Shown here: positions 4,368-56,748 of the stretch, in pieces
How the letters are laid out: each line of letters begins with the position of its first letter
Numbering within the stretch: the first letter of the stretch is position 1
DNA from: Bacteroidota bacterium
GTDB lineage: Bacteria; Bacteroidota; Bacteroidia; NS11-12g; UBA955
Direction: 5' to 3'
DNA: 64,000 nt
Assembly (NCBI GenBank): GCA_041192805.1
Contig: JBEEMF010000011.1
Span: 1,009 to 65,008 of the forward strand
The notes under the pieces: model-generated
Databases searched by the model: none
Told to the model about the DNA's origin: nothing
Seen by the model: only the letters and a program-made list of their open reading frames with translations
Position numbers and translations under genes: made by a program

Positions 4368-4372
4368 ATTTG
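4342..4372 (+). promoter_or_regulatory. Bacteroidota-type promoter TTG-N20-TAAATTTG for the lycopene-cyclase-domain gene
   Basis: TAAATTTG at 4365..4372; its TAA is the stop codon of the sigma gene. TTG at 4342..4344. The ATG at 4384 lies 11 nt after the motif. Confidence 0.45.
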
Positions 4373-4383
4373 AGGTATTCTTT

Positions 4384-10266: not shown

Positions 10267-10294
10267 ATGACGCGAAAAAGTCAATTGGTTGCAA
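10267..10294 (-). promoter_or_regulatory. ECF-sigma-type promoter TTGCAACCAAT-N11-CGTCAT upstream of the 1361-aa cargo gene
   Basis: The minus strand reads TTGCAACCAATtgactttttcgCGTCAT, ending 27 nt before ATG 10239. It matches 51582..51609 in sequence and spacing. No TAnnTTTG box in this gap. Confidence 0.5.
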
Positions 10295-40745: not shown

Positions 40746-43700
40746 TTATTCAACAGGTTTCTCCTCTGTGGTGGCGGTAATTGGCGTTTTCTTTCGTCGG
40801 AAAGTCTCAAATTCACGACGATACAAAGCACCCCCGCCCAAAGTATTTCCCGACACACCATTGGTAATTGAACCACTTTGCTGTAGTAATAAATTATTGC
40901 TCCGAGAGAACATTTTTAATCTCCAATTCTCATTTCGAGTGGAATATTCGAGGTTGAAATTCAACGGCACCGCAGCACCATTCACCAACACAGCAACCGT
41001 AGGATCGTAATTCAAATTAAGCTTTAAACGATCGCTCAAATTCCATTCGCTGTTCACAAATACTTGGGTATTGCTACTTGTACCACTATTCCTCCTCACA
41101 TCATCGATATTCACCTGAATCTTTGTCTTGATGCCATACTTCTGAAAAATATCATTTACTACGTTGGATGCAATGTTCGATACGCTGTTCCCCGCTACCC
41201 CTGCTCCACTCACCACGTTGCCACTAGTTGGGTTACCACTGGAAAAAGAAGGGGGTAAAAAGTTGCCAAAAATCAACAGCGCAATGGCCTGTCGCATCGT
41301 TTCATCTTTGTCTTGCCGAATCCTCTGAATCACAGCATTTACATCACTATTACTTCCCGCGCTTAATGCCAATTCAGGGGCCTGTAAATCAAAGCCAATC
41401 TGTGGCCTCATCAAACTACCATTGATATTCAATACACTCACGATCAGTGTAGGCGGATAATTGGTACTAGATGCGTTACCACTTCCAACCATCAACTGTG
41501 CCGGAGAAATTCTCTTTTCGATTTTGCCCGATAGCGCAAGATTTGCATCGTAAGGATCACCAACCCAAGTAATTTTACCCCCTTCCGTAAGCGTAATTTT
41601 CTTTGTCAGCAAGTTGATTCCCGGCAACGAGAAAACATACAACCCAGATTTTATGGTATACTGACCATTTAAGAAGAAACGCTCGTTTTCATCATACAAA
41701 ATCCTGATATCGCCTGTTCCGCGTCCTTTGATCATATCCCCCAACCTCTTATCAATCAAAAATTCCGTTTCCAAGTCCGGGGTAGCTCGAATCATCAAAT
41801 CAATATTACCCATACCAGACGAGGATTTTTTGGACTTAGAATTCCCTACCACTTTGCCAAAATGATTTCTAAAAACAATGTTCCCAGCCACAGAATTTGT
41901 ATTAAGAGTGGGGTAAAGAATGCTCAACTTACTGTTTTCGGAAGGCGTCATATCCATCTTGATATTGATCTTATCCAAAGGACCCCAAACCCTGCAACTT
42001 CCATTGCCCCAAGCGGTGCCATAAAACAAATCATTATCGGCTTCCGTGGTCTCAATAATTCTAATTTTTTGGGCATCATACACATTCAAATCCAAAGCCA
42101 AATCCCTGAAATGATTATGGGTAAAAGCAAAGGTCGCCTTCGCCTTCCCCTTTTTGAACTTACCATAAATTTGAATCGGATAGCGAGTGAATATTCCATT
42201 CGATTTCACCAAAAAATCCGCATCATCAAATCGATATTTAGTTCCCAAGTAATCAACTTTCATCATCACGTCCCTGGCCTTCAAATCGCCTTGCATAATC
42301 AAATCGTTCATTGGCCCTTCAATTCGCACATTCCCACCAATGGTTCCGGATTCCGTAGTTGCAATGCCCGATAAAAATGGCGTCAAAATTCCAATAGTTG
42401 TCCCTTCCGGAATAAACAAATCCGCGTTTAAACCAGGATCATCGCCCCCAAATTTTAGCCGACCCCTAAACGATGTGTTTTTCAAAACGCCTCGGCGCGC
42501 CACAAGATCTAAATCAAGCACCTTGTCCGATGTCCGTTGGGCCACTTTTAAATCAAAACTCCCATATCGATAACCCAAGTAAACCAAATCGTTCAAATAA
42601 CTCTCTCCAACAATTTTTGCCTGTCCGAGAGCCGCAGCAATCCTCACCCTACCGCCCAAATGAAACTGCATACTATCAAAGGTGCCATGAGGAAAAAATG
42701 GCGAAAGCAACTCCGGGGTGATATTACCCACTTCCACCGTAAATGTATCACTCAACATCTCAGAAAGTACACCGTGCAATTCCACGAAATGTCGAGAATT
42801 ATTGACCATCAACTTTTTAACTTTCAATCTATTTCCGCCACCTAAACTCAATTGACTCTCTTGGTCCAACTGCCAAGGCTCTTTGTTGATGTAAAAATTG
42901 GCTGCGTGAATATTGGTAGGCAAAGAATCTAACTTCACATTAGACTGAGAACCTAGATTCACATTGTAACGATCTTGCCTGTCGTGCAAATCAAATCCAA
43001 CATCCAAAATCCCATCCCTCAATTTCCCTTCCAAAGCAAATCGATCGTACTTCGTCTCCCCATAATTCAAGTCTTTGGCGTTTAGCAAAAGCGATGCCGC
43101 TCCATCAGTATTTGCATTTACAGCCAATTTTAAACGATGCCATTCGGCGCCCTGCCACGACAAATCCATGGGGCCCAAAACCACATCCACATCACGGTGC
43201 TGCGAACCAAAATGACCAACCAGATTTATAGGTCCCGATTGTAATGTCCTGTCAACAAATGAAGATAGCCAATCGGTTTGAATCAACTGTAAATCAAAGC
43301 TAAAATCCCTAGGAGCAAATGACGTTGGGGCAGTAAAACGATTGGGCAACAATGTATATAAAAAATGCTCCCCAATATTCATCGCATCAGATGGATCAAA
43401 TCCAGAAGAGATACTTCCATTTAACCAGTCTCCAGAAAATTGTATCCCTTCCGAAGCCGACTGAACCAATTGCTGGCTATTGCAAAAATATCGGACAGAA
43501 CCGTGATCGGCCACAAGTTGCCTCACCTCAATTGTTGCATTGGTATTCTGCGCATCGCCGCCGCCATAAATTAAGGAAGCCGACCCCGACAAAATCAATG
43601 GTACCTTATCCAATCCAATATTCTCAAATTCTACATTGCTGGCAGACAAATCTGCATCCATAGACAAGTTCTTATCCCAATCAAAAACGGTTGCATCGGC

Positions 43701-45212
43701 CACAAAAGCAAACCTTGCATCATCCGATTCAACATTTAAGTGGAACTGACTCTTGTCAAATTCGCCCGTTAATTGAATATCGGTGAGATGCCTACCCAGC
43801 ACCGTATAATCGATCAAATGAATATCCGCTTCCGTGTTTAACAAATCCGCTGTAAGCCCTTCGCCGGTAATCAGAATATTCGCATCATTCACAAACGCAT
43901 CCAATCCATTGCCCGCAAACATGCCCAAATCCCACTGACCCAATTTGCCTTCAACATCGTAAGACATCGAATCGATACTCTCAGGAAAATCCAATGCCAA
44001 ATGACCCGAGAAATGACCAGGTCCAGCATCCAAATCGCCATCAAAACCAAAGGAAGTTAGACCGCCAGTAATTGTAGCTTCGATGTCAAGGGCTTCAAAC
44101 TTTTTAACAAAATCAATCGAGTCAAGCTCATAAACAACATCTTTTAAATCGGCCACAGCCAATCGCGAATCATCCAATTCCAGGCGATATTCAAAATTAT
44201 CCAAATCCTGCAAACTCGTCAAAATGCCACTACCCTTCAACAGGGTTTGATCTGTTAACGATTCAAAAGTGAATTTCTTCAGCACCAAGGAAGCCAATGG
44301 GCCTTCCGCATGCGCATTGACAAACAGCGGCAAATTCCGATCCTTGAACCAGGGGTGAAAAGCGATTAACTCCTCCAAGCAAAATTTGGACTTGCGCAAA
44401 CGAATATCAAAAGTAACCTTGTGGAAAATATCCCTGAAATCGCGCATCGAATTATAACGCATTTCAAAACGATCACCCAGAATGCTGCATGGCGTTTCCA
44501 ACAATAAATTGCTGGCCAGAATCTGCTTTTTATCAATCACAACCCGCGCAGCTCCTTTTACGATATTCAGACCGCTTCGCTCTTTAAACGTCATCGACTT
44601 TATATTCACCGTAAACCACGGATGCCCAAACGTGAGTGAGTCCATTTCCGCATCGATATTGGACAGAATCATATTGTCTGGATCGAAGTACGGGTCGCTA
44701 GAACGCTGACGAATGTTGAAAAACTGATAGTACCCATCCACAATCTTTACGTCGTTGATACCAAAATCCCACCCCTCACTATAGTCGTTTGGATCAGATG
44801 GCGGATCTAAAAAATCGGAGAAAAAATCAATATTTAAGGGCCCTTCTTCTGTGTGATAACCATTTTTCATGCGGGGCTTATAAATCACAACCGACGATAG
44901 TTCGATGCTATGCGACTTCCAATCCACCTTGGTTAATCGGGCCTCTATTTGACGTGCTTCAATCAGCGTATCTTTGCTCTGATCGTAGATTCTTAGGCGC
45001 TCAACGTGAATGTTCCGCAAAAAATCAATTTCAACATATCCAATTTCAACCTTGGTGTTTAACTCTTTCGATAGCTGCTGAGCGAGTTGTTGGGCGAAAT
45101 AATTCTGAACGATGTGATTGCGCGACAAAACAATTGCGGCTCCTGTAAGTAGCAGGAACGACAGCAACATCAGAAGCAAAAACTTCCGTAGTTTTGTACG
45201 CTTATTTTTCAA
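40746..45212 (-). CDS. tamB: Translocation/assembly module protein TamB-like
   Basis: About 1488 aa. Basic N-terminus plus TM (MKNKRTKLRKFLLLMLLSFLLLTGAAIVL), a long beta-rich body and a DUF490-like C-terminus. Start ambiguous: TTG 45212 (preferred), GTG 45251 or TTG 45254. Confidence 0.75.
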   Translation of the reverse strand: MKNKRTKLRKFLLLMLLSFLLLTGAAIVLSRNHIVQNYFAQQLAQQLSKELNTKVEIGYVEIDFLRNIHVERLRIYDQSKDTLIEARQIEARLTKVDWKSHSIELSSVVIYKPRMKNGYHTEEGPLNIDFFSDFLDPPSDPNDYSEGWDFGINDVKIVDGYYQFFNIRQRSSDPYFDPDNMILSNIDAEMDSLTFGHPWFTVNIKSMTFKERSGLNIVKGAARVVIDKKQILASNLLLETPCSILGDRFEMRYNSMRDFRDIFHKVTFDIRLRKSKFCLEELIAFHPWFKDRNLPLFVNAHAEGPLASLVLKKFTFESLTDQTLLKGSGILTSLQDLDNFEYRLELDDSRLAVADLKDVVYELDSIDFVKKFEALDIEATITGGLTSFGFDGDLDAGPGHFSGHLALDFPESIDSMSYDVEGKLGQWDLGMFAGNGLDAFVNDANILITGEGLTADLLNTEADIHLIDYTVLGRHLTDIQLTGEFDKSQFHLNVESDDARFAFVADATVFDWDKNLSMDADLSASNVEFENIGLDKVPLILSGSASLIYGGGDAQNTNATIEVRQLVADHGSVRYFCNSQQLVQSASEGIQFSGDWLNGSISSGFDPSDAMNIGEHFLYTLLPNRFTAPTSFAPRDFSFDLQLIQTDWLSSFVDRTLQSGPINLVGHFGSQHRDVDVVLGPMDLSWQGAEWHRLKLAVNANTDGAASLLLNAKDLNYGETKYDRFALEGKLRDGILDVGFDLHDRQDRYNVNLGSQSNVKLDSLPTNIHAANFYINKEPWQLDQESQLSLGGGNRLKVKKLMVNNSRHFVELHGVLSEMLSDTFTVEVGNITPELLSPFFPHGTFDSMQFHLGGRVRIAAALGQAKIVGESYLNDLVYLGYRYGSFDLKVAQRTSDKVLDLDLVARRGVLKNTSFRGRLKFGGDDPGLNADLFIPEGTTIGILTPFLSGIATTESGTIGGNVRIEGPMNDLIMQGDLKARDVMMKVDYLGTKYRFDDADFLVKSNGIFTRYPIQIYGKFKKGKAKATFAFTHNHFRDLALDLNVYDAQKIRIIETTEADNDLFYGTAWGNGSCRVWGPLDKINIKMDMTPSENSKLSILYPTLNTNSVAGNIVFRNHFGKVVGNSKSKKSSSGMGNIDLMIRATPDLETEFLIDKRLGDMIKGRGTGDIRILYDENERFFLNGQYTIKSGLYVFSLPGINLLTKKITLTEGGKITWVGDPYDANLALSGKIEKRISPAQLMVGSGNASSTNYPPTLIVSVLNINGSLMRPQIGFDLQAPELALSAGSNSDVNAVIQRIRQDKDETMRQAIALLIFGNFLPPSFSSGNPTSGNVVSGAGVAGNSVSNIASNVVNDIFQKYGIKTKIQVNIDDVRRNSGTSSNTQVFVNSEWNLSDRLKLNLNYDPTVAVLVNGAAVPLNFNLEYSTRNENWRLKMFSRSNNLLLQQSGSITNGVSGNTLGGGALYRREFETFRRKKTPITATTEEKPVE
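45189..45196 (+). promoter_or_regulatory. -7 box TAGTTTTG for tsaD, located inside the tamB 5' coding region
   Basis: cgTAGTTTTGtacg, 36 nt upstream of TTG 45233. Confidence 0.35.
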
Positions 45213-45217
45213 TCTCT

Positions 45218-45225
45218 CAAATATA
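45218..45225 (-). promoter_or_regulatory. -7 box TATATTTG, 5 nt upstream of tamB TTG 45212
   Basis: The minus strand reads aattTTATATTTGagagaTTGaaaaataag. Confidence 0.35.
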
Positions 45226-45232
45226 AAATTCG

Positions 45233-46261
45233 TTGTCTCTGCTGAATCCACCAAAACCCGCCCGCTCCATTATATTGGGCATCGAGAGCAGTTGCGATGA
45301 TACCGCAGCATCGTTACTCCGCGATGGCAAAATCCTTGCCAACGTAACGGCTAGTCAAAAAGTACACGAACAATACGGCGGAGTGGTACCTGAATTGGCC
45401 TCCCGTGCCCATCAAAGCAATATAATTCCAGTGATTCATTTGGCACTAGAAAAAGCCAAAATTTCCATCGATGAAGTCAACGCAGTGGCCGTCACACAAG
45501 GTCCCGGACTTATGGGATCACTGCTGGTTGGAACCAATATTGCCAAAGGCATTTGCATTGCCAACAACATCCCTCTGATCGGAATCAATCACCTAGAAGC
45601 CCATGTTGCGGCACTATTTATCGACCACCAGGTAAACTTGCCCATGCTCTGTCTTTTAGTGAGTGGCGGACATACACAAATCATCTTGGTGAACGGCATC
45701 GACGATATGAAAATAGTGGGAACTACGCAAGACGATGCGGCAGGCGAAGCATTCGACAAAGCAGCAAAGCTCCTTAATTTAGGCTATCCCGGAGGACCCT
45801 TAATTGATCAATATGCAAAGCAAGGCGATCCAAATAAATACAAATTTCCCGATAGTCAAACGCAAGGATTGGACTTTAGTTTTTCGGGCATAAAAACATC
45901 ATTATTGTATTTTCTTAAAAACAATTTAAAAAAAGACAACCAATTCATAAACAACGAGTTGCCTAATATTTGCGCATCGTATCAGCATCAAATCGTAATG
46001 AGCTTAACGAAGCGTTTTGCCAAGGCAATAGAAGTGTACAAACCCTGCAGTATTGGGCTTTGTGGCGGGGTTTCTGCCAATAGTGAATTGAGGGATGCCA
46101 TTGATACTTTGGGCACCGAAAAAGGCCTACAAGTGTGTATACCAGCTTTTGAATATTGCACCGACAATGCGGCGATGGTTGCCATGGCCGGATATGAAAA
46201 ATTCCAAAAAAATCAATTTACACCGCTCAATGCCACTCCGTTTGCAAGAGCACACAAATAA
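45233..46261 (+). CDS. tsaD: tRNA N6-adenosine threonylcarbamoyltransferase TsaD
   Basis: ILGIESSCDDTAAS, GINHLEAHV and SGGHTQ motifs. No in-frame ATG precedes GIESSCDD. TTG 45233 is the only canonical candidate with a reasonable N-terminus. Confidence 0.9.
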   Translation: MSLLNPPKPARSIILGIESSCDDTAASLLRDGKILANVTASQKVHEQYGGVVPELASRAHQSNIIPVIHLALEKAKISIDEVNAVAVTQGPGLMGSLLVGTNIAKGICIANNIPLIGINHLEAHVAALFIDHQVNLPMLCLLVSGGHTQIILVNGIDDMKIVGTTQDDAAGEAFDKAAKLLNLGYPGGPLIDQYAKQGDPNKYKFPDSQTQGLDFSFSGIKTSLLYFLKNNLKKDNQFINNELPNICASYQHQIVMSLTKRFAKAIEVYKPCSIGLCGGVSANSELRDAIDTLGTEKGLQVCIPAFEYCTDNAAMVAMAGYEKFQKNQFTPLNATPFARAHK

Positions 46262-46295
46262 ATGGTGTTTCAGCCAATTTTAATATCTTCGTGAC

Positions 46296-47201
46296 ATGCC
46301 AATCATCCCTACTCCAACATTAATCGCCGAGGGCAACGAAAGAGCCATCGCTAGGGCAATTAGTTGGGTAGAGAACCAACATCCGCAATCGATGGAATTG
46401 CTGGAACAACTCGAAGGTAACTGCCCGATTGTTGGCGTAACTGGCCCTCCCGGTGCCGGAAAAAGCAGCTTGGTGAACGCATTGGTGTTGCACTGGAGTT
46501 CAAAAGGATTAAAAACAGCCATTGTTGCCGTTGACCCATCCTCCCCATTCAACTTAGGCTCCCTATTGGGCGATCGTTTGCGCATGCCAGGCCTTTTCCT
46601 TGACCCCAAAGTCTTTATTCGAAGCTTATCCGCCCGAGGTTCGTTGGGTGGCCTTAGCGCGAGTATTATTGAAGTGTGCGATATCCTAAAACACGCCAAA
46701 TTCGATAGAATCATCATCGAAACCGTAGGTGTGGGTCAGAGCGAAATCGAAATTGCAGGCATCGCCGATACTACTTTGGTCGTAACCGTCCCAGAAAGCG
46801 GCGACGAGGTGCAAACGATGAAAAGTGGCGTGATGGAAATCGCAGACATTTTCGTGGTCAACAAGAGCGATAGAGACGGTGCAGAAGCATTTGCCAATCA
46901 TTTAAAAAAACTAGCCCATTACAAGTCGACCAGCGATGGTTGGGAAATTCCCGTAATCAACACAGTGGCAACCGATGGAAAAGGGATTCAAACATTGAGC
47001 GATGCGATTTCGGCTCATCTAGAAACGCAAAACAACATTCAAAATCTCAGCAATCTATTTGCAGAACGTGCCTTTCGATTGATTCAACGTCAAAAAATGA
47101 GAAGTATCCCGTTAAATCAATTGAAGGAAGAAATTGCCATTGAATTAGATAAAGGCCTGTTCAACCTCTATCGTTTCGCCAAAAAATACTATACTAATTA
47201 G
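46296..47201 (+). CDS. meaB: Methylmalonyl-CoA-mutase-associated GTPase MeaB/ArgK family
   Basis: 301 aa. P-loop VGVTGPPGAGKSSLVNAL, IIETVGVGQSE and VVNKSDR motifs. Confidence 0.85.
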   Translation: MPIIPTPTLIAEGNERAIARAISWVENQHPQSMELLEQLEGNCPIVGVTGPPGAGKSSLVNALVLHWSSKGLKTAIVAVDPSSPFNLGSLLGDRLRMPGLFLDPKVFIRSLSARGSLGGLSASIIEVCDILKHAKFDRIIIETVGVGQSEIEIAGIADTTLVVTVPESGDEVQTMKSGVMEIADIFVVNKSDRDGAEAFANHLKKLAHYKSTSDGWEIPVINTVATDGKGIQTLSDAISAHLETQNNIQNLSNLFAERAFRLIQRQKMRSIPLNQLKEEIAIELDKGLFNLYRFAKKYYTN

Positions 47202-49627
47202 TGTTGGATTTGAACCAATGCCGTGGAATTGCCAATGCGCAAGGTGTAAATTCCCGATGCGAGATCTTTTACTGAAATCGAAACAGTATCCGCTGTTACC
47301 TGTCCGTTTAACATCGTAACGCCAGTCATTGAAACCAATTGCCAAGTATTGTTTCTGTAAGCGCCCAATCCTGTAACATTGAATTGATTTGATGCTGGAT
47401 TTGGATACAAATTCAAGCCGCCTTTAATCACCTTCACTGATGCCGTTTTATCAACCAACGTCACAGTACAATTCTTAGAAGTAGCCTGCCATTTGCTATC
47501 GTAATCAACCATCGCGATGTTATTAATTACCGTTTTCAAAGGCAATGTTTGATAGGTCTCAACACGATACATCACATAACCAACACTTCCAATTGGATTG
47601 GCTTCAAATGAACTCAAATTTGCTTCAGGAAAATCTACGACTAACACTCTACCCTGTTCGATGCAATAGTTTGCTTTGTTTGGATAAAACGAGGTCAGAA
47701 CCAAGCGCGACAATGGCAAGTTAGCGTCCAATGTGTCCACCATAACAACGCGCTTCACTAGACTTCCACTTACGTTTCTGAAGTCCACGCGATACTCCCA
47801 CTGCTTTTGACGGTAATCTACGGTTCCCTCTTCGATATTCGATTTCTGTACGGTCACCATCCCACCTCTCCGACTCAAACTCAATTGCAAGGTATCATTG
47901 TTGTCTTTGGTATCGGCATCTTTCTGAGTCAGTCCGGTTCCGGATTTAACCATAAAGTTGAAGTTGTCTGCATTTTGCGCAGTCAATGGAATTGCCGTTG
48001 TAATCACGATGACTTGTTCTCCAAAAGCGGCCAAATTACTCAGTGAATAAATGGCTTCATTGTTGGCGTAATTGTCTGGCATCGGATTGGATTGGAATGC
48101 TGAAATATCCGACCCATGTTGAATATGTACAGTCCCGTTAGTAAGTGCTGTGCCTCCATGATTTGCGATTTTCACAATCACTTTCACTTCGTCGCCCGCT
48201 TTTGCCCCTGCCGGGATAATTGCATTCATTCCCAACTGAACATCTAAAATCGATGGCAATTGGTAGTAACCCAAACTCACATAACTATAAACGCCTTTTC
48301 TAATTCTTGCTGTGTTATTGCCTAAGCAAACACCATACAAATGCTTTCCGGGATTGGTTGATAGATCATAATCACCCGCAGGCATCGCCATTGTAAAGTG
48401 TCCGCTAGAATCGGTAACAGCAAAATAGACTGTACCTGAAACTTTATTTACCATCCTCACCAGTTGGTTCGATAGTCCAATTTCGGCATCGTCTTTTACG
48501 CAATTCGAATTGACATCATAAAATAGATCACCATACAAATTCCCAGATTCAGATTCGATTTTTGAGAAATATTGCAGATCGGTATTGAGTTCGGTAAAAT
48601 CGCCCCATATGAAGGCTCCATCGCCGCGCTGACCTAGGTTAAAAGACCCGTTGATGCGGTTGCCTGTAAATCTCAATGAAGCGCCATCATAGACTAGTAG
48701 TGACGTGCCGTTGCTATTTTTTACAAAAGAACCCCCAATCAAAAGATCGGTACCGGCGCCCATTAATGTTGTGGGTGAGCTAATGCTAAAAGAATCAAAT
48801 CCGATTGGACTCGCCCAAGTACCTTGGAAAATAGAAATTTGCTTATCGCCCGTTGCGTTTTTCCCTAATGCTGCAATTTTATTATTGAAAACTCCCAATT
48901 CTAACACTTCGCCTTTGAAAGGACTTCCTACACCACCCCAACCGCCATTGGCAGCCGTAAAGTAAGCGATATTTCCTGTGCTAGAACCTGCAAAAGTCTG
49001 AAAATCCCCACCAATATAAAGTCGATTCCCTACTACAGCCAAGGTGCGAATCACACCATCTGTACCTTGTGCGGTTCCACTATTTCCCAGGTAAGACCAA
49101 GATTTCCCGTTGTATGCAGCAATGTTTTGAACTGGATTTCCGTTCACCGTGTTATCAAACAACCCCGCAACAATTAGCTTATCGTCGAAAACGGTCATTG
49201 CGATAATTCCATTGTTTCTGGTATCCACAACACCAATTTCAGCGACCCATTTCGCACCATCCCATTTATACAAATGACTTACTGGAACATCGGCGTCGCG
49301 TTCTGCATTGGCAATATAAGCCGCAGCATACATCGTATCGTGATACAAAGCGATGGAATGGAAATTATATGTTCCTTTTACGGTTTTTACGGGTGATGGA
49401 GTTGTTAGCCCTGAATAGTAACTCCAGCTAACACCATTCCAGCGAGCCATTGTGAAATCATTGATTTCGGCTGTAGAGGTTTCTTCGAAAAGCGCCAGGT
49501 ACTCGTTCCCCGCAGCGTAAGATGCAACAACCCGGGCTGGCAAACCAGATCCCAATGGCTGCAACACCTGCGCCTGTGCGGAAACACACAGGATACATAG
49601 CACTGTCAACAAAGACTGAACTCTCAT
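47198..49627 (-). CDS. Secreted beta-propeller-like / SdrD-B-like / DUF11-like protein with T9SS type-A CTD
   Basis: I start at ATG 49627 (MRVQSLLTVLCILCVSAQAQ signal peptide); the track start 49735 would overlap the upstream gene by 68 nt. Repeats of about 50 aa with GG(D/S)F...NIA.(Y/F).G..W..(L/V)G. GDLFYDVNSNCVKDDAEIGLSNQLV...TDSSGHFTMAMPAGDYDL. The CTD is LNLYPNPASNQFNV...GIYTLRIGNSTALVQIQH. Confidence 0.8.
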   Translation of the reverse strand: MRVQSLLTVLCILCVSAQAQVLQPLGSGLPARVVASYAAGNEYLALFEETSTAEINDFTMARWNGVSWSYYSGLTTPSPVKTVKGTYNFHSIALYHDTMYAAAYIANAERDADVPVSHLYKWDGAKWVAEIGVVDTRNNGIIAMTVFDDKLIVAGLFDNTVNGNPVQNIAAYNGKSWSYLGNSGTAQGTDGVIRTLAVVGNRLYIGGDFQTFAGSSTGNIAYFTAANGGWGGVGSPFKGEVLELGVFNNKIAALGKNATGDKQISIFQGTWASPIGFDSFSISSPTTLMGAGTDLLIGGSFVKNSNGTSLLVYDGASLRFTGNRINGSFNLGQRGDGAFIWGDFTELNTDLQYFSKIESESGNLYGDLFYDVNSNCVKDDAEIGLSNQLVRMVNKVSGTVYFAVTDSSGHFTMAMPAGDYDLSTNPGKHLYGVCLGNNTARIRKGVYSYVSLGYYQLPSILDVQLGMNAIIPAGAKAGDEVKVIVKIANHGGTALTNGTVHIQHGSDISAFQSNPMPDNYANNEAIYSLSNLAAFGEQVIVITTAIPLTAQNADNFNFMVKSGTGLTQKDADTKDNNDTLQLSLSRRGGMVTVQKSNIEEGTVDYRQKQWEYRVDFRNVSGSLVKRVVMVDTLDANLPLSRLVLTSFYPNKANYCIEQGRVLVVDFPEANLSSFEANPIGSVGYVMYRVETYQTLPLKTVINNIAMVDYDSKWQATSKNCTVTLVDKTASVKVIKGGLNLYPNPASNQFNVTGLGAYRNNTWQLVSMTGVTMLNGQVTADTVSISVKDLASGIYTLRIGNSTALVQIQH

Positions 49628-49667
49628 CCCATGCAATTTATACCATATAAAACACTTTTTCTTCACT

Positions 49668-51050
49668 TTATTGAATTCTCCAAGAATAATGTGCGGACAA
49701 TCCCAACGACCAACCCCTTGGCTGCAAAGCAGCATTTGGGATATACATTGAGGTTAACATTGACTGTGCATTGAATCGCAATCCAATGGCATGGCTATAA
49801 TTGAGGCGTTTTTCAACTCCCACTGCAACACGAGCACCCCAAATCAGTTTTCTAAAGTTCGATGCCTGCTGCGCGGTTTGCAATAATGTTTGATAATCCA
49901 ATGTCTGCGCACCGGTTGATACCGACAATTTGTTGGCTTGCAACAACACCTCAGGCGTAATTGAATATTGTTTTGTTATTGGAAAATAACCCACATAACC
50001 AACGGGCACAGAAATCATCGAATAGGTGGTTTGAGAATTGAATTTCACTTGCGGTCCTAAGCCCAAATACCCAAAAATAGGATAGTAACCCAAGGCATCA
50101 GGATTGTTGCCTGGAATCACCGTTGCCGGCATACTATCTCTAAAGTCGAACCGCTGCTGCGTGCGATTCTCAGCATACGCAAACCCCAATTTAACAGCGT
50201 GATTCTTAGTAATTTGGTATACACTAGAAATATTGAAGCGACCTGCACTCAAGGTAAATTCGCCGTCTTTCATTTGGTTGAAATAATTCTTGTGGACGTA
50301 TTTCGATAAATCCGCCGTGCTGCGATACATAAAACCTGTTTGATTCGCGTCTACGCCAGCTTCAATCATCCAACGACCCAACAATTTATCTGATTTCTTG
50401 TCAACAGACCATGCCAACTGATCGGCAGAGGCACTAGACTCTGAACTTGGATTCACCGCGCCTTCAATTTCCACGAACTCGATTCCAAATGGATTTAAAT
50501 CCAATATTGCAGGTACTACATCGGCCGTATTTTCAATTATGAGTTGGACAGGACTTGGAGTGTTAAATTCTGGTGCTTGAATTGGGTCAGGGGTATTTTC
50601 AGGATTGATATAATTGCCAGAAGGATTATACTTCAAAGACTTTGACTTCGAGGTAGCTCCGTTTAATGGTGATTCTGGATTAGATTGAGATTCAGGATTC
50701 TGAATTGGAGCATTCAGATCGGAGAAATTAGAAGATTTCGTTTGATCCAATTCCGACTTCTCTGTAATTTTTACTGCGCCAGTTTGTGCAACCGTTTTTG
50801 GGGCAGCAACTGACTTATTCGATATCTTATTCCACTGAAACAGCGAGCCCGCAACCACTAATAACAGAACGCCAGCAACCAGCCAATACCATATGAATTT
50901 TTGCTGACGTTCTTTGCGGTCAAGGGAAGCATCTATCGACTGCCATAGCGCAGGTTCGGGATTCGGGGTAAAATCCTCGAACTGTTGGCTTAACCAATTG
51001 TCGATATGTTTGTTACTGTTTTCCAGTGTCCTTGTTTCTTTGTTTTTCAA
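49668..51050 (-). CDS. Single-pass membrane protein downstream of ECF sigma (anti-sigma-like N-terminus, P/S/N-rich linker, C-terminal beta-barrel-like domain)
   Basis: 460 aa. The only canonical start upstream of the conserved-looking HIDNWLSQQFEDFTPNPEPALWQSI is TTG 51050, which overlaps the sigma gene by 38 nt. TM FIWYWLVAGVLLLVVAGSLF. The last ~230 aa show alternating amphipathic strands (AVKLGFAYAE, YSMISVPVGYVGYF, IWGARVAVGVEKRL, HAIGLRFNAQS, WSLGLSAHYSW). Confidence 0.5.
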   Translation of the reverse strand: MKNKETRTLENSNKHIDNWLSQQFEDFTPNPEPALWQSIDASLDRKERQQKFIWYWLVAGVLLLVVAGSLFQWNKISNKSVAAPKTVAQTGAVKITEKSELDQTKSSNFSDLNAPIQNPESQSNPESPLNGATSKSKSLKYNPSGNYINPENTPDPIQAPEFNTPSPVQLIIENTADVVPAILDLNPFGIEFVEIEGAVNPSSESSASADQLAWSVDKKSDKLLGRWMIEAGVDANQTGFMYRSTADLSKYVHKNYFNQMKDGEFTLSAGRFNISSVYQITKNHAVKLGFAYAENRTQQRFDFRDSMPATVIPGNNPDALGYYPIFGYLGLGPQVKFNSQTTYSMISVPVGYVGYFPITKQYSITPEVLLQANKLSVSTGAQTLDYQTLLQTAQQASNFRKLIWGARVAVGVEKRLNYSHAIGLRFNAQSMLTSMYIPNAALQPRGWSLGLSAHYSWRIQ

Positions 51051-51567
51051 CTAAATCTTTGAGCATCACGCGGGCCCTAAATAAAAGGCTCTTACTGTTC
51101 GATACGCTGGTTCCCAACACTTCAGAAATTTCTTGGTGAGAGAGTTTATCAATTGCATACATGTTAATCACGATGCGATATTTCTCCGGGAGCTCCATCA
51201 AACAGGCGAGCACTTCATTGACTTCCATTGGTTCATCCACTGTTGTGGTTTCACCGGAAGTATCATCCAGAACATCAACCACTTCCACCATAACGGGGCC
51301 GCGAGCTGATTTTCTGAATCTCGACATGGCTAAGTTGATGATGATACGCGTCATCCAACCTTCCAATTGAGAAGTGTCATTCAGGGTAGCAATACTGTCA
51401 AAGACCTTAATGAAACCATCTTGTAACAAATCCTGAGCATCAGCGCGGCTGTTAGAGTATCGCAAGCAAAATCCAAACATTTTGGCAGCATATTTCTCGT
51501 AGAGAGTCTTTTGCGCCTGTCTGTCTTTTTTGATACATCCGGCTATGATATCATTGGTGTTTAGCAA
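51013..51567 (-). CDS. ECF (group 4) RNA polymerase sigma-70 factor
   Basis: 184 aa with a TTG start. Region 2 is DAQDLLQDGFIKVFDSIATLNDTSQLEGWMTRIIINLAMSRFR. Region 4 is SHQEISEVLGTSVSNSKSLLFRARVML. Confidence 0.85.
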   Translation of the reverse strand: MLNTNDIIAGCIKKDRQAQKTLYEKYAAKMFGFCLRYSNSRADAQDLLQDGFIKVFDSIATLNDTSQLEGWMTRIIINLAMSRFRKSARGPVMVEVVDVLDDTSGETTTVDEPMEVNEVLACLMELPEKYRIVINMYAIDKLSHQEISEVLGTSVSNSKSLLFRARVMLKDLVEKQRNKDTGKQ

Positions 51568-51581
51568 GTAGCTTCGAGGTT

Positions 51582-51609
51582 ATGACGCACAAATCGCGAT
51601 TGGTTGCAA
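51582..51609 (-). promoter_or_regulatory. ECF-sigma-type promoter TTGCAACCAAT-N11-CGTCAT upstream of the ECF sigma operon (probable autoregulation)
   Basis: The minus strand reads TTGCAACCAATcgcgatttgtgCGTCAT, ending 14 nt before TTG 51567. It matches 10267..10294 in sequence and spacing. Confidence 0.5.
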
Positions 51610-51682
51610 AGAAAAATGGAAAATTTTGTGTTTTATACGCATAGTATCGGGACCGACCGCATTTAAGGCCACTTTTGCGATG

Positions 51683-51718: not shown

Positions 51719-53707
51719 ATGCTGTACGATCGAAAGAATTTATCTGATGCCGTATTACTGAGTTTATACCGTGGTTTATTAAAGCCGCGATTGATCGAAG
51801 ATCGAATGCTCGTGCTATTGCGTCAAGGCAAAGTGGGCAAATGGTTTAGCGGTATTGGTCAAGAGGCGATTTCGGTGGGCATTACGATGGCATTAGACCC
51901 AGACGAATACATCATGCCGCTACATAGGAATTTGGGGGTTTTCACTTCGCGAGGCATTCCATTTGGCAAGCTTTTCGCCCAATGGCAAGGAAAAAAATCT
52001 GGATTTAGCAAAGGCCGAGAGCGCAGTTTTCACTTTGGAACCAATGAATACGCCATCGTGGGGATGATTTCTCACTTGGGTGCGATGCTAGGTGTGGCCA
52101 ATGGCGTTTCCCTTTCCCACGTCTTAAATCATCGTAAAAAAATCTCTGTCGCATTTTCTGGCGATGGCGGTACCTCCGAAGGCGACTTTCACGAGGCACT
52201 TAACGTGGCTGCCGTTTGGCAATTGCCCGTGATCTTTTTAATCGAAAATAATGGCTATGGACTAAGTACGCCATCGAACGAACAGTTTAAGTGCAAGCAA
52301 TTCATCGACAAGGGAATCGGCTATGGCATGGAGACAGTGCAGGTGGATGGAAATAATATTTTAGAAGTTTATCATACCGCAACGCATTGGGCGGAAGAAC
52401 TCAGAAACAATCCCCGTCCGATTATTTTTGAAGCGCTTACCTTTAGAATGAGAGGCCATGAAGAGGCCAGCGGCGTGAAATATGTACCCGAACATTTATT
52501 TGAGGAATGGGGCAAAAAAGACCCTTTAAGCAATTACGAATCCTATTTAAAAGAATTGGGCATTTTGTCCGATGCGATCATCGATCAATATAAAAAAGAG
52601 TTTTTGGCAGAGATCGAAGTGGGCTTGGAAACCACATTTGCGGAAGAGGAAGTAGTTCCGGATTTGGCAGAGGAAATGAACGATATGTATGCGCCATTTG
52701 AATTTGCCAATGATTTTCAATGTGCAGATAGCGCTCCGGAGAGTGACCGAGACCTGCGATTGGTGGATGCGATTAAGGAGGGTTTGGAGCAGAGCATGGT
52801 ACGACATGATAATCTTGTGATTATGGGTCAGGACGTGGCCGAATATGGTGGCGTTTTCAAAATCACCGACGGATTTCTTGAGAAATTTGGCAAGGGCCGT
52901 GTGCGAAATACGCCCATCACCGAGAGTTCAATTTTGGGTGCGGGTTACGGTTTGAGCATCGCCAAACAAAAGGCCGTTGTTGAAATGCAATTTGCGGATT
53001 TTGTCACCTGCGGATACAATCAAATCGTAAACAATTTAGCCAAGAGCCATTACCGGTGGGGTCAGCCTGCCGATGTGGTAGTTCGCATGCCAACCGGCGC
53101 GGGCGTGCAAGCCGGCCCTTTTCACAGTCAGAGCACCGAGGCATGGTTTTACCACGTTCCGGGTTTAAAAATATATTATCCAAGCACGCCAGCCGATGCA
53201 AAGGGTTTATTGATGCGCGCCATCGAGGATCCAAATCCTGTGTTGTTTTTTGAGCACAAGTTGTTGTATCGATCGGTGAGCGGCGGCGTAGCCGCCGCCC
53301 CCTACCTCATTGAAGAAGGAAAAGCCACTGTCCATGATCATGGCGACGACTTTTGCATCGTCACTTACGGTTGGGGTGTCCACAAAGCCTTGGATTGCAT
53401 CAAAGAACATAATCTTAACGGCCGGGTCATCGACCTTAGAACCCTCATCCCTTGGGACAAAGAGGAAGTCGCCGCACAAGTGAAAGCCACAGGTAAAGTT
53501 CTCGTCCTCACCGAAGATACACTTACCGGAAGCATCGCATCAGACATCGCCGCTTGGATTTCGGAACACTGCTTCCAAGATCTCGATGCGCCGGTGCAAC
53601 GTTTGGGCAGTCTTGACACCCCCGTACCGCTAGCCAAAACCCTAGAAGACCATTTTCTTCCTTGGGAGCGCTTGCCATTGGCATTAAAATCACTCATCGA
53701 ATATTGA
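51719..53707 (+). CDS. 2-oxoacid dehydrogenase E1 component, fused alpha/beta subunits (TPP-dependent)
   Basis: 662 aa. The alpha part has GDGGTSEGDFHEALNVAAVWQLPVIFLIENNGYGLST (TPP motif). The beta part has MGQDVAEYGGVFKIT..., RVRNTPITESSILGAG and YPSTPADAKGLL. No E2 or E3 in the window. Confidence 0.85.
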   Translation: MLYDRKNLSDAVLLSLYRGLLKPRLIEDRMLVLLRQGKVGKWFSGIGQEAISVGITMALDPDEYIMPLHRNLGVFTSRGIPFGKLFAQWQGKKSGFSKGRERSFHFGTNEYAIVGMISHLGAMLGVANGVSLSHVLNHRKKISVAFSGDGGTSEGDFHEALNVAAVWQLPVIFLIENNGYGLSTPSNEQFKCKQFIDKGIGYGMETVQVDGNNILEVYHTATHWAEELRNNPRPIIFEALTFRMRGHEEASGVKYVPEHLFEEWGKKDPLSNYESYLKELGILSDAIIDQYKKEFLAEIEVGLETTFAEEEVVPDLAEEMNDMYAPFEFANDFQCADSAPESDRDLRLVDAIKEGLEQSMVRHDNLVIMGQDVAEYGGVFKITDGFLEKFGKGRVRNTPITESSILGAGYGLSIAKQKAVVEMQFADFVTCGYNQIVNNLAKSHYRWGQPADVVVRMPTGAGVQAGPFHSQSTEAWFYHVPGLKIYYPSTPADAKGLLMRAIEDPNPVLFFEHKLLYRSVSGGVAAAPYLIEEGKATVHDHGDDFCIVTYGWGVHKALDCIKEHNLNGRVIDLRTLIPWDKEEVAAQVKATGKVLVLTEDTLTGSIASDIAAWISEHCFQDLDAPVQRLGSLDTPVPLAKTLEDHFLPWERLPLALKSLIEY

Positions 53708-55650
53708 CAACTGAAAAAGGAAATATTAACCCAACACACACCCTCTCGATCGACACCAGTTCTGAGGCGTCCCTGGCATTTTCCTTCGTCAACGATACCC
53801 AACAACACATTTTTTTAACGGGAAAAGCAGGAACGGGAAAAACAACCTTCCTAAAAAACTTGCTGTCCCAGTCGCTGAAAAAAACCGTTGTCGTTGCCCC
53901 CACCGGTGTCGCCGCAATCAATGCCGGCGGAAGCACCATCCATAGCATGTTTGGGCTTCCCACCCGAGCTTATGTGCCCACCAACGAGCCGGTAGACCCA
54001 AACGTTGCCAACAATACGCCGATGATTCGGGAGCATTTTCATTATCCCAAGGTGAAGCGCGACCTATTTCAAGCGCTTGAATTACTGGTGATTGATGAAA
54101 TCTCCATGGTTCGGGCCGATCTATTTGATGCGATAGATACCGCACTTCGATTTGCTAGAAACAGCTCCAAACCCTTTGGTGGAGTTCAATTGCTTCTCAT
54201 TGGCGATTTATTGCAGCTGCCACCCGTAGTTACCGAACATGAACGCGGACTCATTTATCATTACTATGCCACCGAGTTTTTCTTTTCTTCCAAGATTTTC
54301 CCGAGTCTTCAGCTGATTACCATTGAGTTAAAAACCATTTATCGTCAAAGCGATAGGCAGTTCATCAACCTATTGAACCAAATTCGATCCAACCAAATGG
54401 AGAGTTGGGACTACGAAAATCTTGCAGAACGAATTCAAACCGATTTTCAACCCAAAGAGCCTGGATGGATCACACTTACCACCCACAACAAACAGGCCGA
54501 AGGGATCAATGAAAAGGAATTGGCAAAACTGGATGTCGCTGAAAAACAATACGTTGCCAAAGTATCTGGCGAATTCAACGAAGGCAGTTTCCCCACCGAA
54601 GGCATTTTACGACTCAAAGAAGGCGCTCAGGTGATGTTTGTCAAAAACGACACCTCCTACGAAAAACGATACTACAACGGTAAAATTGGTACCGTAACCC
54701 ATATTGGCGGCAATACGATTTTTATTCATTGCAACGACGGCAAGCCGGCCATGGAAATCGAAAGAGAAACATGGAAAAACCTGCGCTACAACTACAACCC
54801 AACTGGAGAAACTGTTGAACAGGAAGAAGTTGGCAGCTTTGAGCAGTTCCCCGTTCGTTTGGCATGGGCCATAACCGTGCACAAAAGTCAGGGTTTGACC
54901 TTTGAAAAAGCGATGATCGATGCAGGGAAGAGTTTCGCACCCGGCCAAGTTTATGTCGCACTAAGTAGATGCACCAACCTCGATTCAATGGTCTTATTGA
55001 CCGCCATTCGGGCGCAGAACATCATGACCGATCAGCGGATTTTGGAATTTCACGAATCCCAAGCCAAGACCCGCGACTTATTTGAAATTTTAGAAGAAAA
55101 ACGTCAGGCCTACCACAAGCAACAATTGATGGAAGTCTATGGCGTAAAGCATTTACATTACGAATTCAATGGGATGATGATTGCGATTTCCAAGGAAAAA
55201 AGCGCGAAAATAACGACCAAATTTGCAGAATTATCTCCCATACGATTGCAGTTTCAGGAGATGGATGCCACGGCGCAGAAATTCCAACGATCGATAGCGA
55301 AGATGTTTCATGAGCATGAGGCGCGATGGGAAAGTTTGGAGCGACTGCCAACGGCGGAAGAACAGGCACAGGCCCAGGAAGAGCTGACCCAATTATTGAT
55401 CGAGCGATGCACCAAGGCGGGCAATTATTTTGCCGATATGTTGAGTGAGCAGATCATCGAACCGGTTAGAAGATCTTTTAGCGAGGTCGCGCGCGGCGGA
55501 AAGCCTCTTGGTTCACAAAAAATTCGCGACCGTGTTGGTGATTTTCAATCGCATTGTTGGTCGTACATCAAAAAACTATACAAAGTAAAATACGGCGAGG
55601 TCCCACTCTTTGTGAGCGAAAACAAAATCAGTAATCCCGAAAATTTCTAA
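53704..55650 (+). CDS. Pif1/RecD-like SF1 helicase with ~190-aa helical C-terminal extension
   Basis: Walker A FLTGKAGTGKTTFL, LVIDEISMV, LLLIGDLLQLPPV and WAITVHKSQGLTFEKAMID...VYVALSRC motifs. Start is either TTG 53704 (ataTTGA, overlapping the E1 stop) or TTG 53662. Confidence 0.75.
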   Translation: MTTEKGNINPTHTLSIDTSSEASLAFSFVNDTQQHIFLTGKAGTGKTTFLKNLLSQSLKKTVVVAPTGVAAINAGGSTIHSMFGLPTRAYVPTNEPVDPNVANNTPMIREHFHYPKVKRDLFQALELLVIDEISMVRADLFDAIDTALRFARNSSKPFGGVQLLLIGDLLQLPPVVTEHERGLIYHYYATEFFFSSKIFPSLQLITIELKTIYRQSDRQFINLLNQIRSNQMESWDYENLAERIQTDFQPKEPGWITLTTHNKQAEGINEKELAKLDVAEKQYVAKVSGEFNEGSFPTEGILRLKEGAQVMFVKNDTSYEKRYYNGKIGTVTHIGGNTIFIHCNDGKPAMEIERETWKNLRYNYNPTGETVEQEEVGSFEQFPVRLAWAITVHKSQGLTFEKAMIDAGKSFAPGQVYVALSRCTNLDSMVLLTAIRAQNIMTDQRILEFHESQAKTRDLFEILEEKRQAYHKQQLMEVYGVKHLHYEFNGMMIAISKEKSAKITTKFAELSPIRLQFQEMDATAQKFQRSIAKMFHEHEARWESLERLPTAEEQAQAQEELTQLLIERCTKAGNYFADMLSEQIIEPVRRSFSEVARGGKPLGSQKIRDRVGDFQSHCWSYIKKLYKVKYGEVPLFVSENKISNPENF

Positions 55651-56748
55651 TTAAACGTTAAAGCGGAAGTGCATACAATCTCCGTCTTTCACGGTGTATT
55701 CTTTCCCTTCTACACGCAACTTCCCAACTTCCCGGCAGGCGGCTTCAGAACCATAGTGGATATAATCCTCGTAAGCGATAACCTCTGCGCGGATAAATCC
55801 TTTTTCAAAATCAGAGTGAATTTCTCCGGCTGCACCGGGGCCTTTCGTCCCTTCGGTGATGGTCCAAGCGCGAACTTCTTTCACTCCCACGGTGAAGTAA
55901 GTGATATAGTTCAACAACTTGTAAGCGGCATGAATCAACTTCTCTACCCCACTCTTTTCCAACCCCATTTCTAGGAGAAACATTTGCCTATCCTCAAAAC
56001 TTTCCAAATCAGCAATTTCTGCTTCGATGGCTGCTGAAATCAAAATCAAACCTGCATTCTCACCGGCGATGGCAGTTTTCACTGCTTCAACGTGGGCATT
56101 TCCATTATTCACACTTTCTGGATCCACATTGCACACATACAAAACGGGTTTGTCGGTTAGCAAATTCAATTCCTTAATAAACAATCTTTTTTCCGGCTCA
56201 ATTTCTAGTGTTCTTGCGTTTTGACCCTTCAACAAATGGGCCTGAAATGCTTCGCACACTTCCAACATTTTTGAGGCATCTTTATCGCCCGTTTTGGCTT
56301 GTTTGAACACCTTTGAAATATTCTTTTCGAGTGATTCCAAATCCTTCAACTGAAGTTCCGTATCGATAATTTCTTTGTCGCGCACAGGATTCACAGAACC
56401 ATCTACGTGAATGATATTATCGTCATCAAAGCAACGTAAAACATGTAAAATGGCATTTGTGTTTCGGATATTTCCCAAAAACTGATTGCCCAATCCATCG
56501 CCCTTACTTGCACCTTTCACCAAACCCGCGATATCCACGATTTCGATGTTGGTTGGAACCAAGCTCAACGGATTTACCAACGCAGCCAATTTGTTCATCC
56601 GAACATCGGGAACGGTGATTGTACCTACGTTAGGTTCAATTGTACAGAAAGGGAAATTTGCAGATTGCGCTTTTGCGCTTGAAACCGCATTAAAAAGGGT
56701 TGATTTCCCTACATTGGGAAGTCCCACGATACCACATTGCATTGCCAT
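55651..56748 (-). CDS. ychF: Redox-regulated ATPase YchF
   Basis: 365 aa. GIVGLPNVGKSTLFNA, DIAGLVKGAS and the C-terminal TGS/YchF block RAWTI..GTKGPGAAGEIHSDFEKGFIRAEV. Confidence 0.95.
   Translation of the reverse strand: MAMQCGIVGLPNVGKSTLFNAVSSAKAQSANFPFCTIEPNVGTITVPDVRMNKLAALVNPLSLVPTNIEIVDIAGLVKGASKGDGLGNQFLGNIRNTNAILHVLRCFDDDNIIHVDGSVNPVRDKEIIDTELQLKDLESLEKNISKVFKQAKTGDKDASKMLEVCEAFQAHLLKGQNARTLEIEPEKRLFIKELNLLTDKPVLYVCNVDPESVNNGNAHVEAVKTAIAGENAGLILISAAIEAEIADLESFEDRQMFLLEMGLEKSGVEKLIHAAYKLLNYITYFTVGVKEVRAWTITEGTKGPGAAGEIHSDFEKGFIRAEVIAYEDYIHYGSEAACREVGKLRVEGKEYTVKDGDCMHFRFNV

Follow-up and report, generated by a model that had tools for sequence, protein, structure and literature searches.

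The Dma (dual membrane-spanning) family of anti-sigma factors was defined by Pardue et al. (PNAS 2024, PMC10927553) in Bacteroides thetaiotaomicron. Its members have an N-terminal anti-sigma region, a single transmembrane (TM) helix, a long stretch of disorder and, at the C terminus, an 8-stranded barrel with the annotation OMP_b-brl_2; they are encoded together with an extracytoplasmic function (ECF) sigma factor of group ECF21 and are restricted to Bacteroidota (PMC10927553). Dma1(1-40) pulls down Das1, full-length Dma1 was detected with tags at both ends, and outer membrane vesicles hold only C-terminal/barrel fragments (PMC10927553). C-terminal fragments of Dma1 of ~17-20 kDa accumulate and the full-length protein is gone in stationary phase (PMC10927553). 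Reo/EcfO of B. fragilis and M0N98_03760 of Phocaeicola vulgatus are Dma orthologues (PMC10927553, PMC13088901, PMC9308784), and Dma2 was characterised in 2026. In the literature searched, no Dma study on type IX secretion systems (T9SS) or on flavobacteria was found. Regulators of this type are known only since 2024 and only from gut Bacteroides. Here, we describe an uncharacterised freshwater relative, encoded in a three-gene locus on a 64-kb stretch of DNA (contig JBEEMF010000011.1; in the following, the window). The locus probably encodes a sigma factor of the ECF type together with a cognate, Dma-type anti-sigma factor, a pair that would tune the surface display of T9SS proteins.

The three genes had already been noticed in a reading of the same DNA made from the sequence alone (the original prediction). 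It had suggested that the middle protein would span the whole envelope and merge the roles of FecR and FecA, and it knew of no characterised example of such a protein. On this last point it was wrong: the layout is exactly that of Dma1/Das1 from B. thetaiotaomicron, and the same contrast to FecA/FecR is drawn by the Dma authors (PMC10927553). What had been observed in the sequence itself is sound, except for a −7 box to which we return below.

Results

Organisation of the locus

The locus consists of the following features.

51582 to 51609, minus strand: candidate ECF-type promoter TTGCAACC-N13-GCGTCAT, starting 40 nt upstream of the sigma TTG
51013 to 51567, minus strand: ECF sigma gene, 184 aa, TTG start
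49668 to 51050, minus strand: middle gene (Dma-like, predicted anti-sigma factor), 460 aa, TTG start
49628 to 49667, minus strand: conserved intergenic element with a −7-like box, seen in an alignment of 15 loci
47198 to 49627, minus strand: T9SS cargo gene, 809 aa, ATG start

As originally described, all three genes lie on one strand; the sigma and the middle gene overlap by exactly 38 nt (51013-51050), and the middle gene is separated from the cargo gene by exactly 40 nt (49628-49667). The open reading frame (ORF) of the cargo gene had been listed from 49735, and its real start is the ATG at 49627, which opens a signal-peptide-like N terminus (MRVQSLL...).

The product of the first gene matches Sigma70_r2 (PF04542, 56 bits), Sigma70_r4_2 (PF08281, 59 bits) and TIGR02937 (86 bits, cut-off 42.9). 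It contains regions 2 and 4 only and its length of 184 aa lies within about 180-200 aa, which fits an ECF (group IV) sigma-70 factor. The best specific NCBIfam model, NF058625 (GFO_1088/PG0214 family), is matched with 92 bits and thus below its cut-off of 130 bits; the NCBIfam models do not tell the relatives apart either.

Anatomy of the middle protein

The 460-aa protein can be divided into the following parts.

50901 to 51050, minus strand: cytoplasmic N-terminal module, residues 1-50, putative sigma-binding region (majority-residue fraction 0.89)
50835 to 50900, minus strand: single TM helix, residues ~51-72, from hydropathy and helical in the AlphaFold model
50379 to 50834, minus strand: disordered periplasmic linker, residues 73-224 (predicted local distance difference test score, pLDDT, <50 over residues 78-222)
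49671 to 50378, minus strand: C-terminal 8-stranded outer-membrane beta-barrel, residues 225-460, as predicted with AlphaFold2 and Foldseek
49989 to 50201, minus strand: very long beta3-beta4 hairpin, residues 284-354, in the barrel model

The anatomy that had been read from the sequence held: HIDNWLSQQFEDFTPNPEPALWQSI is present in the N-terminal part, there is one hydrophobic segment, cysteines are absent and the last ~235 aa model as beta-strands. The HxxxCxxC motif of the zinc anti-sigma (ZAS) proteins was not found, as expected for a protein that contains no cysteine, and none of the three proteins of the locus has a Pfam match to FecR, Plug or TonB_dep_Rec. The middle protein itself did not match any Pfam or NCBIfam model even at E<=1, and a search of the PDB with the family profile returned only noise from the low-complexity linker.

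Conservation was determined in an alignment of 23 homologues that are 45-95% identical overall. Both the N-terminal module and the C-terminal ~235 aa are highly conserved. Across these relatives the majority-residue fraction of the N-terminal module is 0.89, with the family motif HID..L...F..F..P....W..I...LD followed by a basic run. A profile of the 43-aa module gave no meaningful match in PDB or Pfam. The TM segment is the sole 19-residue Kyte-Doolittle window above 1.6 (peak 2.2 at residues 52-53), its N-side flank is strongly basic across the family, and an N-terminal signal peptide is absent. The linker of 149 aa is rich in S (21), P (15), N (14), A (13), K (11) and E (11). It is hypervariable, with a majority-residue fraction of 0.35 over residues 76-224 and a length of 116-207 aa in the 23 relatives. 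Within the linker lies a semi-conserved island, LDLNPFGIE (residues 183-191; 50478-50504, minus strand), with the family pattern D..PFG; it could be a recognition site for a protease or a partner.

In the AlphaFold model of the full-length protein the overall pLDDT is only 51.5 due to the linker; residues 78-222 are below 50 and eight main strands follow. The barrel was also viewed in isolation, in an AlphaFold2 model of the C-terminal 241 residues built with 44 sequences. This model has 8 strands (residues 227-244, 264-279, 284-310, 325-354, 367-377, 402-415, 420-431 and 442-459) with a pLDDT of 92.5 and a predicted template modelling score (pTM) of 0.81. All of the 82 Foldseek matches in the PDB at E<=1e-3 are outer-membrane barrels. 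At the top stand the TM domain of OmpA (E 1.3e-7, TM-score on target 0.66), NspA (TM-score on target 0.70), OmpW, Ail and OmpX. The structure prediction thus agrees with the original view of the C-terminal part as an outer-membrane barrel. Together with the single TM helix and the disordered linker, it supports a chain that most likely reaches, according to these models, from the cytoplasm to the outer membrane.

Since the chain enters the barrel from the periplasm, the long strand connections should face outward. The conservation of these outward loops equals or exceeds that of the strands (0.92 for L2, residues 303-335, compared to 0.76-0.94 for the strands). The periplasmic turns range from 0.52 to 0.86, and two short ones, T1 (0.52) and T2 (0.58), are the least conserved parts of the barrel. 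Judged from the alignment, this is the reverse of the usual pattern in outer-membrane proteins.

A long-barrel subfamily of environmental Bacteroidota

A word-indexed search returned 183 relatives of the middle protein, all of them "hypothetical" or without a name and from uncultured Bacteroidota. Among GTDB species genomes, 22 loci were found; each of them lies in a metagenome-assembled genome, and many are of lake or river origin. Nearly all are labelled Flavobacteriales, Bacteroidota or Bacteroidia, and one carries an implausible Bifidobacterium label. An exhaustive profile search retrieved 1322 proteins at E<=1e-3, among them ~35 full-length relatives and many more that match from the N-terminal module onward.

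OMP_b-brl_2 (PF13568) is found in 34 of 72 sampled profile matches and OMP_b-brl in 25 of the 72. The original prediction had proposed to compare the C-terminal part with known barrel families; the window protein has no Pfam match there, but its full-length relative P0126 (~30% identity, E 1.5e-76) matches OMP_b-brl_2 with 35.7 bits (cut-off 27) over the region aligned with the barrel. A second relative, P0124, reaches 25 bits. The N-terminal motif is clearly common to distant barrel-bearing proteins; neither the TM helix nor low complexity accounts for the likeness. It is also present in an "outer membrane beta-barrel protein" of Maribacter cobaltidurans whose gene directly follows that of an ECF sigma factor. 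Hundreds of Bacteroidota proteins with OMP_b-brl_2 barrels share the N-terminal module, and they adjoin ECF sigma genes where looked at. Two distant relatives match the NCBIfam "anti-sigma factor" model NF052375 weakly (17-24 bits, cut-off 100).

With a hidden Markov model (HMM) of the barrel only, ~55 of 148 representative matches extend over the full ~235 aa (E 1e-17 to 1e-106), and generic OMP_b-brl_2 proteins match weakly. Therefore, the window protein belongs to a distinct long-barrel subfamily, which, to judge from these searches, is fairly broad, environmental and missed by current domain models.

Linkage of the three genes

The order sigma gene, Dma-like gene and gene with DUF7619 and a C-terminal sorting domain (CTD) is kept in every locus examined, and the sigma and anti-sigma genes overlap or abut. 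Three loci with Dma-like proteins of 45-56% identity have kept the trio, with sigma factors that are 68-82% and cargo proteins that are ~70% identical to those of the window. The trio is also present in four more distant loci found by tblastn, in which the Dma-like proteins are 21-30% identical; in two of these (L028 and L029) the other neighbours differ.

A search from the cargo side gave 40 metagenome loci with relatives of the cargo protein (48-99% identity). In all 37 metagenome loci with at least 900 nt of upstream sequence the Dma-like gene lies immediately upstream of the cargo gene, and the sigma gene precedes it wherever the contig extends far enough. The trio is thus conserved as a unit, in 37 of the 37 informative loci. 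Most loci come from one broadly syntenic clade: the block around the trio (40746-47201 with TamB-like, TsaD and MeaB-like GTPase genes; 51719-55650 with E1 dehydrogenase and PIF1-type helicase genes) is syntenic in most related genome bins, and conservation of the trio is therefore in part inherited gene order. The Maribacter locus has the sigma and the Dma-like gene, without a cargo gene and without a good match to the long barrel.

An ECF-type promoter and a second predicted target

The candidate promoter upstream of the sigma gene has the geometry AAC, 15 nt, CGTC. An AAC at −35 and a CGTC at −10 are the usual look of an autoregulated ECF promoter. The core GCAACC-N14-CGTC, or a variant with one base exchanged, begins 40 nt before the sigma start where the sequence reaches, including loci found by tblastn with Dma-like proteins of 27-30% identity. 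GCAACC-N14-CGTC is present exactly once per locus in 21 loci, and the spacer drifts among loci while the promoter motif holds. A second copy is found elsewhere in the window.

10267 to 10294, minus strand: second exact copy of TTGCAACC-N13-GCGTCAT, intergenic, with the CGTC ending 29 nt before the next ATG
6154 to 10239, minus strand: second T9SS cargo gene, 1361 aa, predicted regulon member, with GEVED, four Bact_surface_Ig-like, PKD and Por_Secre_tail domains

These two sites (51582-51609 and 10267-10294) are the only perfect matches of the motif of 15 specified bases within the window. Shuffled sequences gave ~0.25 chance matches (10 specified bases, three spacings allowed). The 1361-aa protein, encoded 41 kb from the sigma gene, has a type-A CTD (PF18962, 48.2 bits) and a signal peptide as judged by eye. 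Three loci are syntenic with and orthologous to this second cargo gene; the motif is exact in one of them (L032, 55% identity) and has one mismatch in another (L031, 78% identity). A 47% relative of the second cargo protein without the motif (L033) was set aside, being non-syntenic and probably a paralogue.

Two further promoter-like sites were taken as chance matches, one at 34580 (plus strand), which differs in its spacing and falls within an ORF in antisense orientation, and one at 5453 (minus strand), which deviates at 3 positions and is located in coding sequence. The window contains two more T9SS cargo genes, at 26561-28687 and 33053-36544 (both minus strand), which encode PKD repeats and type-B (CHU_C) sorting domains; the ECF motif was not found upstream of either.

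A second ECF sigma gene lies at 3834-4367 (plus strand). Its product is 21% identical to the first sigma factor, and it overlaps by 71 nt with an ORF of 262 aa at 4297-5085 (plus strand). In related loci, the gene at the position equivalent to this ORF matches the Pfam family Lycopene_cyc. The two may be another unusual pair of sigma factor and partner. As reader of the promoter at 10267-10294, the second sigma factor was ruled out by its 21% identity and by its lack of the motif.

The cargo gene probably has its own promoter

The original prediction had stated that neither a −7 box nor a terminator lies between the genes. A strict TAnnTTTG is indeed absent from the 40-nt gap, and terminator-like hits are not above shuffles (5 compared to 4.7 expected), but a −7-like box had been overlooked: TAAATTGC at 49633-49640 (minus strand), one T short of the consensus, ends 5 nt before the ATG of the cargo gene. 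The gap is conserved to a far higher degree than would be expected of an intergenic spacer: its core, CATATGG-TATAAATTGCA, is kept in loci with only 25-50% protein identity, and the box is canonical in two divergent loci, L027 (TACATTTG) and L063 (TAACTTTG). At least nine further genes of the window are preceded by a canonical −7 box, at a distance of 4-18 nt from their start codons.

Because the gap is conserved, the box is canonical in two loci and boxes are found near other starts, an internal promoter is the simplest reading. The cargo gene probably has, as far as can be read from the sequence, its own promoter, which would give a very short leader and a near-leaderless mRNA. The form TAnnTTGY matches the "SM5" promoter class reported in F. 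psychrophilum. Co-transcription of the three genes, as it had been assumed, is thus supported in part only.

Two further observations may be added. TAnnTTTG boxes end 4-11 nt before several starts (e.g. 14382, 55651-56748 and 58281), which points to a frequent use, in this organism, of 5′ leaders that are very short or lacking altogether. A block of 24 nt, GCAAAAGTGGCCTTAAATGCGGTC (51655-51678, minus strand), is located between the promoter of the sigma gene and the divergently oriented gene for the E1 dehydrogenase; it is kept in loci in which its flanks have diverged. No Rfam family was found in the window or in the upstream region of the sigma gene, including this block.

The T9SS cargo protein

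The third gene of the locus encodes a protein with the following features.

49568 to 49627, minus strand: signal peptide, judged by eye
about 48548 to 49555, minus strand: propeller-like repeats, from a repeat scan
47492 to 47833, minus strand: DUF7619, 48.1 bits (cut-off 27)
47222 to 47410, minus strand: type-A CTD, PF18962 with 35.9 bits (cut-off 27) and TIGR04183 with 33.8 bits (cut-off 23)

The type-A CTD that had been claimed for this protein is above threshold. A repeat motif of the kind VAGLFD, IGGDFQ, IGGSFV or IWGDFT occurs at residues 100, 153, 204, 297 and 340, and the spacing of mostly ~45-50 aa fits the blades of a propeller, as far as can be told from the repeats. The SdrD-B-like and DUF11-like modules of the original prediction did not hold to the same extent: the matches to SdrD_B and DUF11, like those to the propeller families Rax2 and DUF5122 and to CarboxypepD_reg, are all under the Pfam cut-offs.

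Discussion

A probable tethered anti-sigma factor linked to T9SS surface proteins

The data are best explained by an ECF sigma factor that is controlled by a cognate anti-sigma factor of the Dma type, and we consider this explanation likely. Residues 1-50 of the 460-aa protein would hold the sigma factor at the inner membrane, by analogy with the characterised relatives. One helix would cross the inner membrane, the disordered linker of ~150 aa would cross the periplasm and the last ~235 aa, modelled with high confidence as an 8-stranded barrel, would sit in the outer membrane. By analogy with Dma1, a change sensed at the outer membrane or at the cell surface would lead to cleavage of the tether and release of the sigma factor. 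Free sigma factor is predicted to read TTGCAACC-N13-GCGTCAT promoters. These would be the promoter of its own operon, with autoregulation and read-through into the adjacent cargo gene, and that of the gene for the 1361-aa T9SS surface protein 41 kb away. Because the adjacent cargo gene appears to have its own, housekeeping-type promoter, its product is likely made at a basal level that would be boosted when the sigma factor is active. In sum, the system would tune the display of T9SS surface proteins to an envelope or surface signal. That T9SS status is coupled to transcription, as had been suggested, is speculation; it is compatible with the strict linkage of the cargo gene and with the fact that the motif also precedes a second gene for a T9SS cargo.

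Several points weigh against this reading. The middle protein has no sequence match of its own in Pfam, NCBIfam or PDB, and the link to the experimentally tested BT_4721 and Reo is indirect, via the shared architecture and via intermediate relatives. For the N-terminal module, no solved anti-sigma domain was matched in the PDB, and the full-length AlphaFold model shows it with low confidence; its binding to the sigma factor is what we infer. The distance of 15 nt between AAC and CGTC is one shorter than the commonest spacing of ECF promoters. The regulon assignment is predicted from the promoter motif, and for the second cargo gene this motif is degraded in one (L074, 53% identity) of the three loci that are syntenic and orthologous.

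It is tempting to ask whether the adjacent propeller protein is more than a target. It could be part of the sensor, docking on the outward hairpin and loops of the barrel, so that its presence or ligand state would determine how stable the anti-sigma factor is; in this way, T9SS export or surface occupancy would be reported by the module. We regard this as unlikely. It is true that in all of the 37 informative loci the Dma-like gene is followed by the cargo gene, and that this also holds where other neighbours differ (L028, L029), but a member of the regulon would be expected to be linked just as tightly, and the linkage is partly inherited, most loci coming from one syntenic lineage. The outward loops are the best conserved part of the barrel, which is unusual for outer-membrane proteins; they could instead bind a small ligand or lipopolysaccharide (LPS) or fold into the barrel lumen. 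Further arguments in favour are the apparent promoter of the cargo gene itself, as a constitutive co-receptor would need it, and the generic Dma-like locus of Maribacter, which has neither a cargo gene nor a good match to the long barrel. In addition, there is a precedent for a CTD protein in signalling in PorA, which acts upstream of PorXY-SigP (PMC7712824).

Because the outward hairpin is conserved, the cargo gene has an apparent promoter of its own and the cargo is constantly present, a contact between barrel and cargo is worth testing. In its full form, and with the same small probability, this idea describes a three-part surface sensor: a propeller delivered by the T9SS would bind the barrel hairpin, and loss of the contact would destabilise the tether, free the sigma factor and raise the level of T9SS surface proteins. 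The contact could be lost by failed secretion, by shedding or by capture of the propeller by an external ligand. If true, an input signal would be defined for the first time for a regulator of the Dma type, and type IX secretion and transcription would be joined in a direct feedback loop.

A true sigma/anti-sigma pair might also work without signalling across the envelope, if the barrel were cut off after export and functioned independently as a small outer-membrane protein and the N-terminal part were an ordinary membrane anti-sigma factor. The accumulation of C-terminal fragments of ~17-20 kDa in B. thetaiotaomicron, where full-length Dma1 vanishes in stationary phase (PMC10927553), is in line with this idea, as is the hypervariable linker, which resembles a disposable tether. 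However, the fusion of N-terminal module, linker and barrel is retained in all relatives seen, which are widely divergent, and the linker is never shorter than 116 aa in the 23 relatives, which fits the need to span the periplasm. Moreover, full-length Dma1 was detected by tags at both ends (PMC10927553). A separate barrel is therefore very unlikely.

That the middle protein is an anchored accessory barrel of the T9SS (PorG- or PorT-like) which lies beside the sigma gene as a regulon member has hardly any probability: the neighbouring gene encodes a T9SS cargo and 4 of 72 distant relatives match the NCBIfam model T9SS_PorG weakly (best E 3.2e-5), but the window protein matches neither PorG nor any other NCBIfam model, the conserved cytoplasmic module of 50 aa and the TM helix would be left without a role, the 38-nt overlap of start and stop with the sigma gene is the classic arrangement of a cognate anti-sigma factor, and a few relatives weakly match the NCBIfam anti-sigma model over the region of the N-terminal module.

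The envelope-spanning design of the Dma-type reading is already established by Dma of gut Bacteroides (2024) and is no new principle. New are the long-barrel subfamily, the constant trio, the conserved ECF-type promoter with its second exact copy and the −7-like box in the gap. The link of a Dma-type regulator to T9SS surface proteins was previously unreported and is testable. The locus thus gives testable hypotheses on what such sensors control, namely T9SS surface display, and perhaps on what they sense.

Comparison with known systems

By its fold, the C-terminal part belongs with the small 8-stranded barrels, i.e. the TM domain of OmpA, OmpX/Ail, NspA and OmpW (Foldseek probability 1.0, TM-score on target 0.56-0.70). 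OmpX and Ail likewise extend their strands beyond the membrane. These barrels are only 10-14% identical to that of the window protein, their signal peptide is cleaved off, and their N terminus is not anchored in the inner membrane.

With FecI/FecR/FecA of Proteobacteria the locus shares the coupling of a barrel in the outer membrane to an anti-sigma factor in the inner membrane and to an ECF sigma factor. In Fec, barrel and anti-sigma factor are two proteins, a 22-strand TonB-dependent transducer and FecR, whereas the window protein is a single chain with a small 8-strand barrel. The PorA-PorXY-SigP system of Porphyromonas gingivalis (PMC7712824) likewise ties a T9SS CTD protein at the surface to an ECF sigma factor that controls T9SS-related genes. 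There, the signal is passed via a two-component system and not via an anti-sigma factor, and PorA is a small FimH-like protein; the comparison is one of role.

The closest systems are Dma1/Das1 (BT_4721/BT_4720), Dma2/Das2, Dma3, Reo/EcfO and M0N98_03760, with which the middle gene shares its position just after the ECF sigma gene. Like the Dma proteins of Bacteroides, its product begins with a short cytoplasmic region, continues with a single TM helix and a long disordered tether in the periplasm, and ends in an outer-membrane barrel of 8 strands; both are found only in Bacteroidota. In both, the anti-sigma factor evolves faster than the sigma factor (here 45-56% compared to 68-82% identity). 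The differences begin with the barrel: OMP_b-brl_2 is not detectable in the window protein, unlike Dma1, and in its barrel of ~235 aa the beta3-beta4 hairpin is very long and the outward loops are strongly conserved. Here, a propeller gene with a T9SS type-A CTD always follows, whereas beside the dma1 operon NigD2 (BT_4719) is reported as a regulon member. The host is an uncultured freshwater lineage of Bacteroidota, and the predicted targets are T9SS surface proteins, in contrast to the vesiculation, polysaccharide utilization locus (PUL) and O-antigen phenotypes of the Dma systems in Bacteroides.

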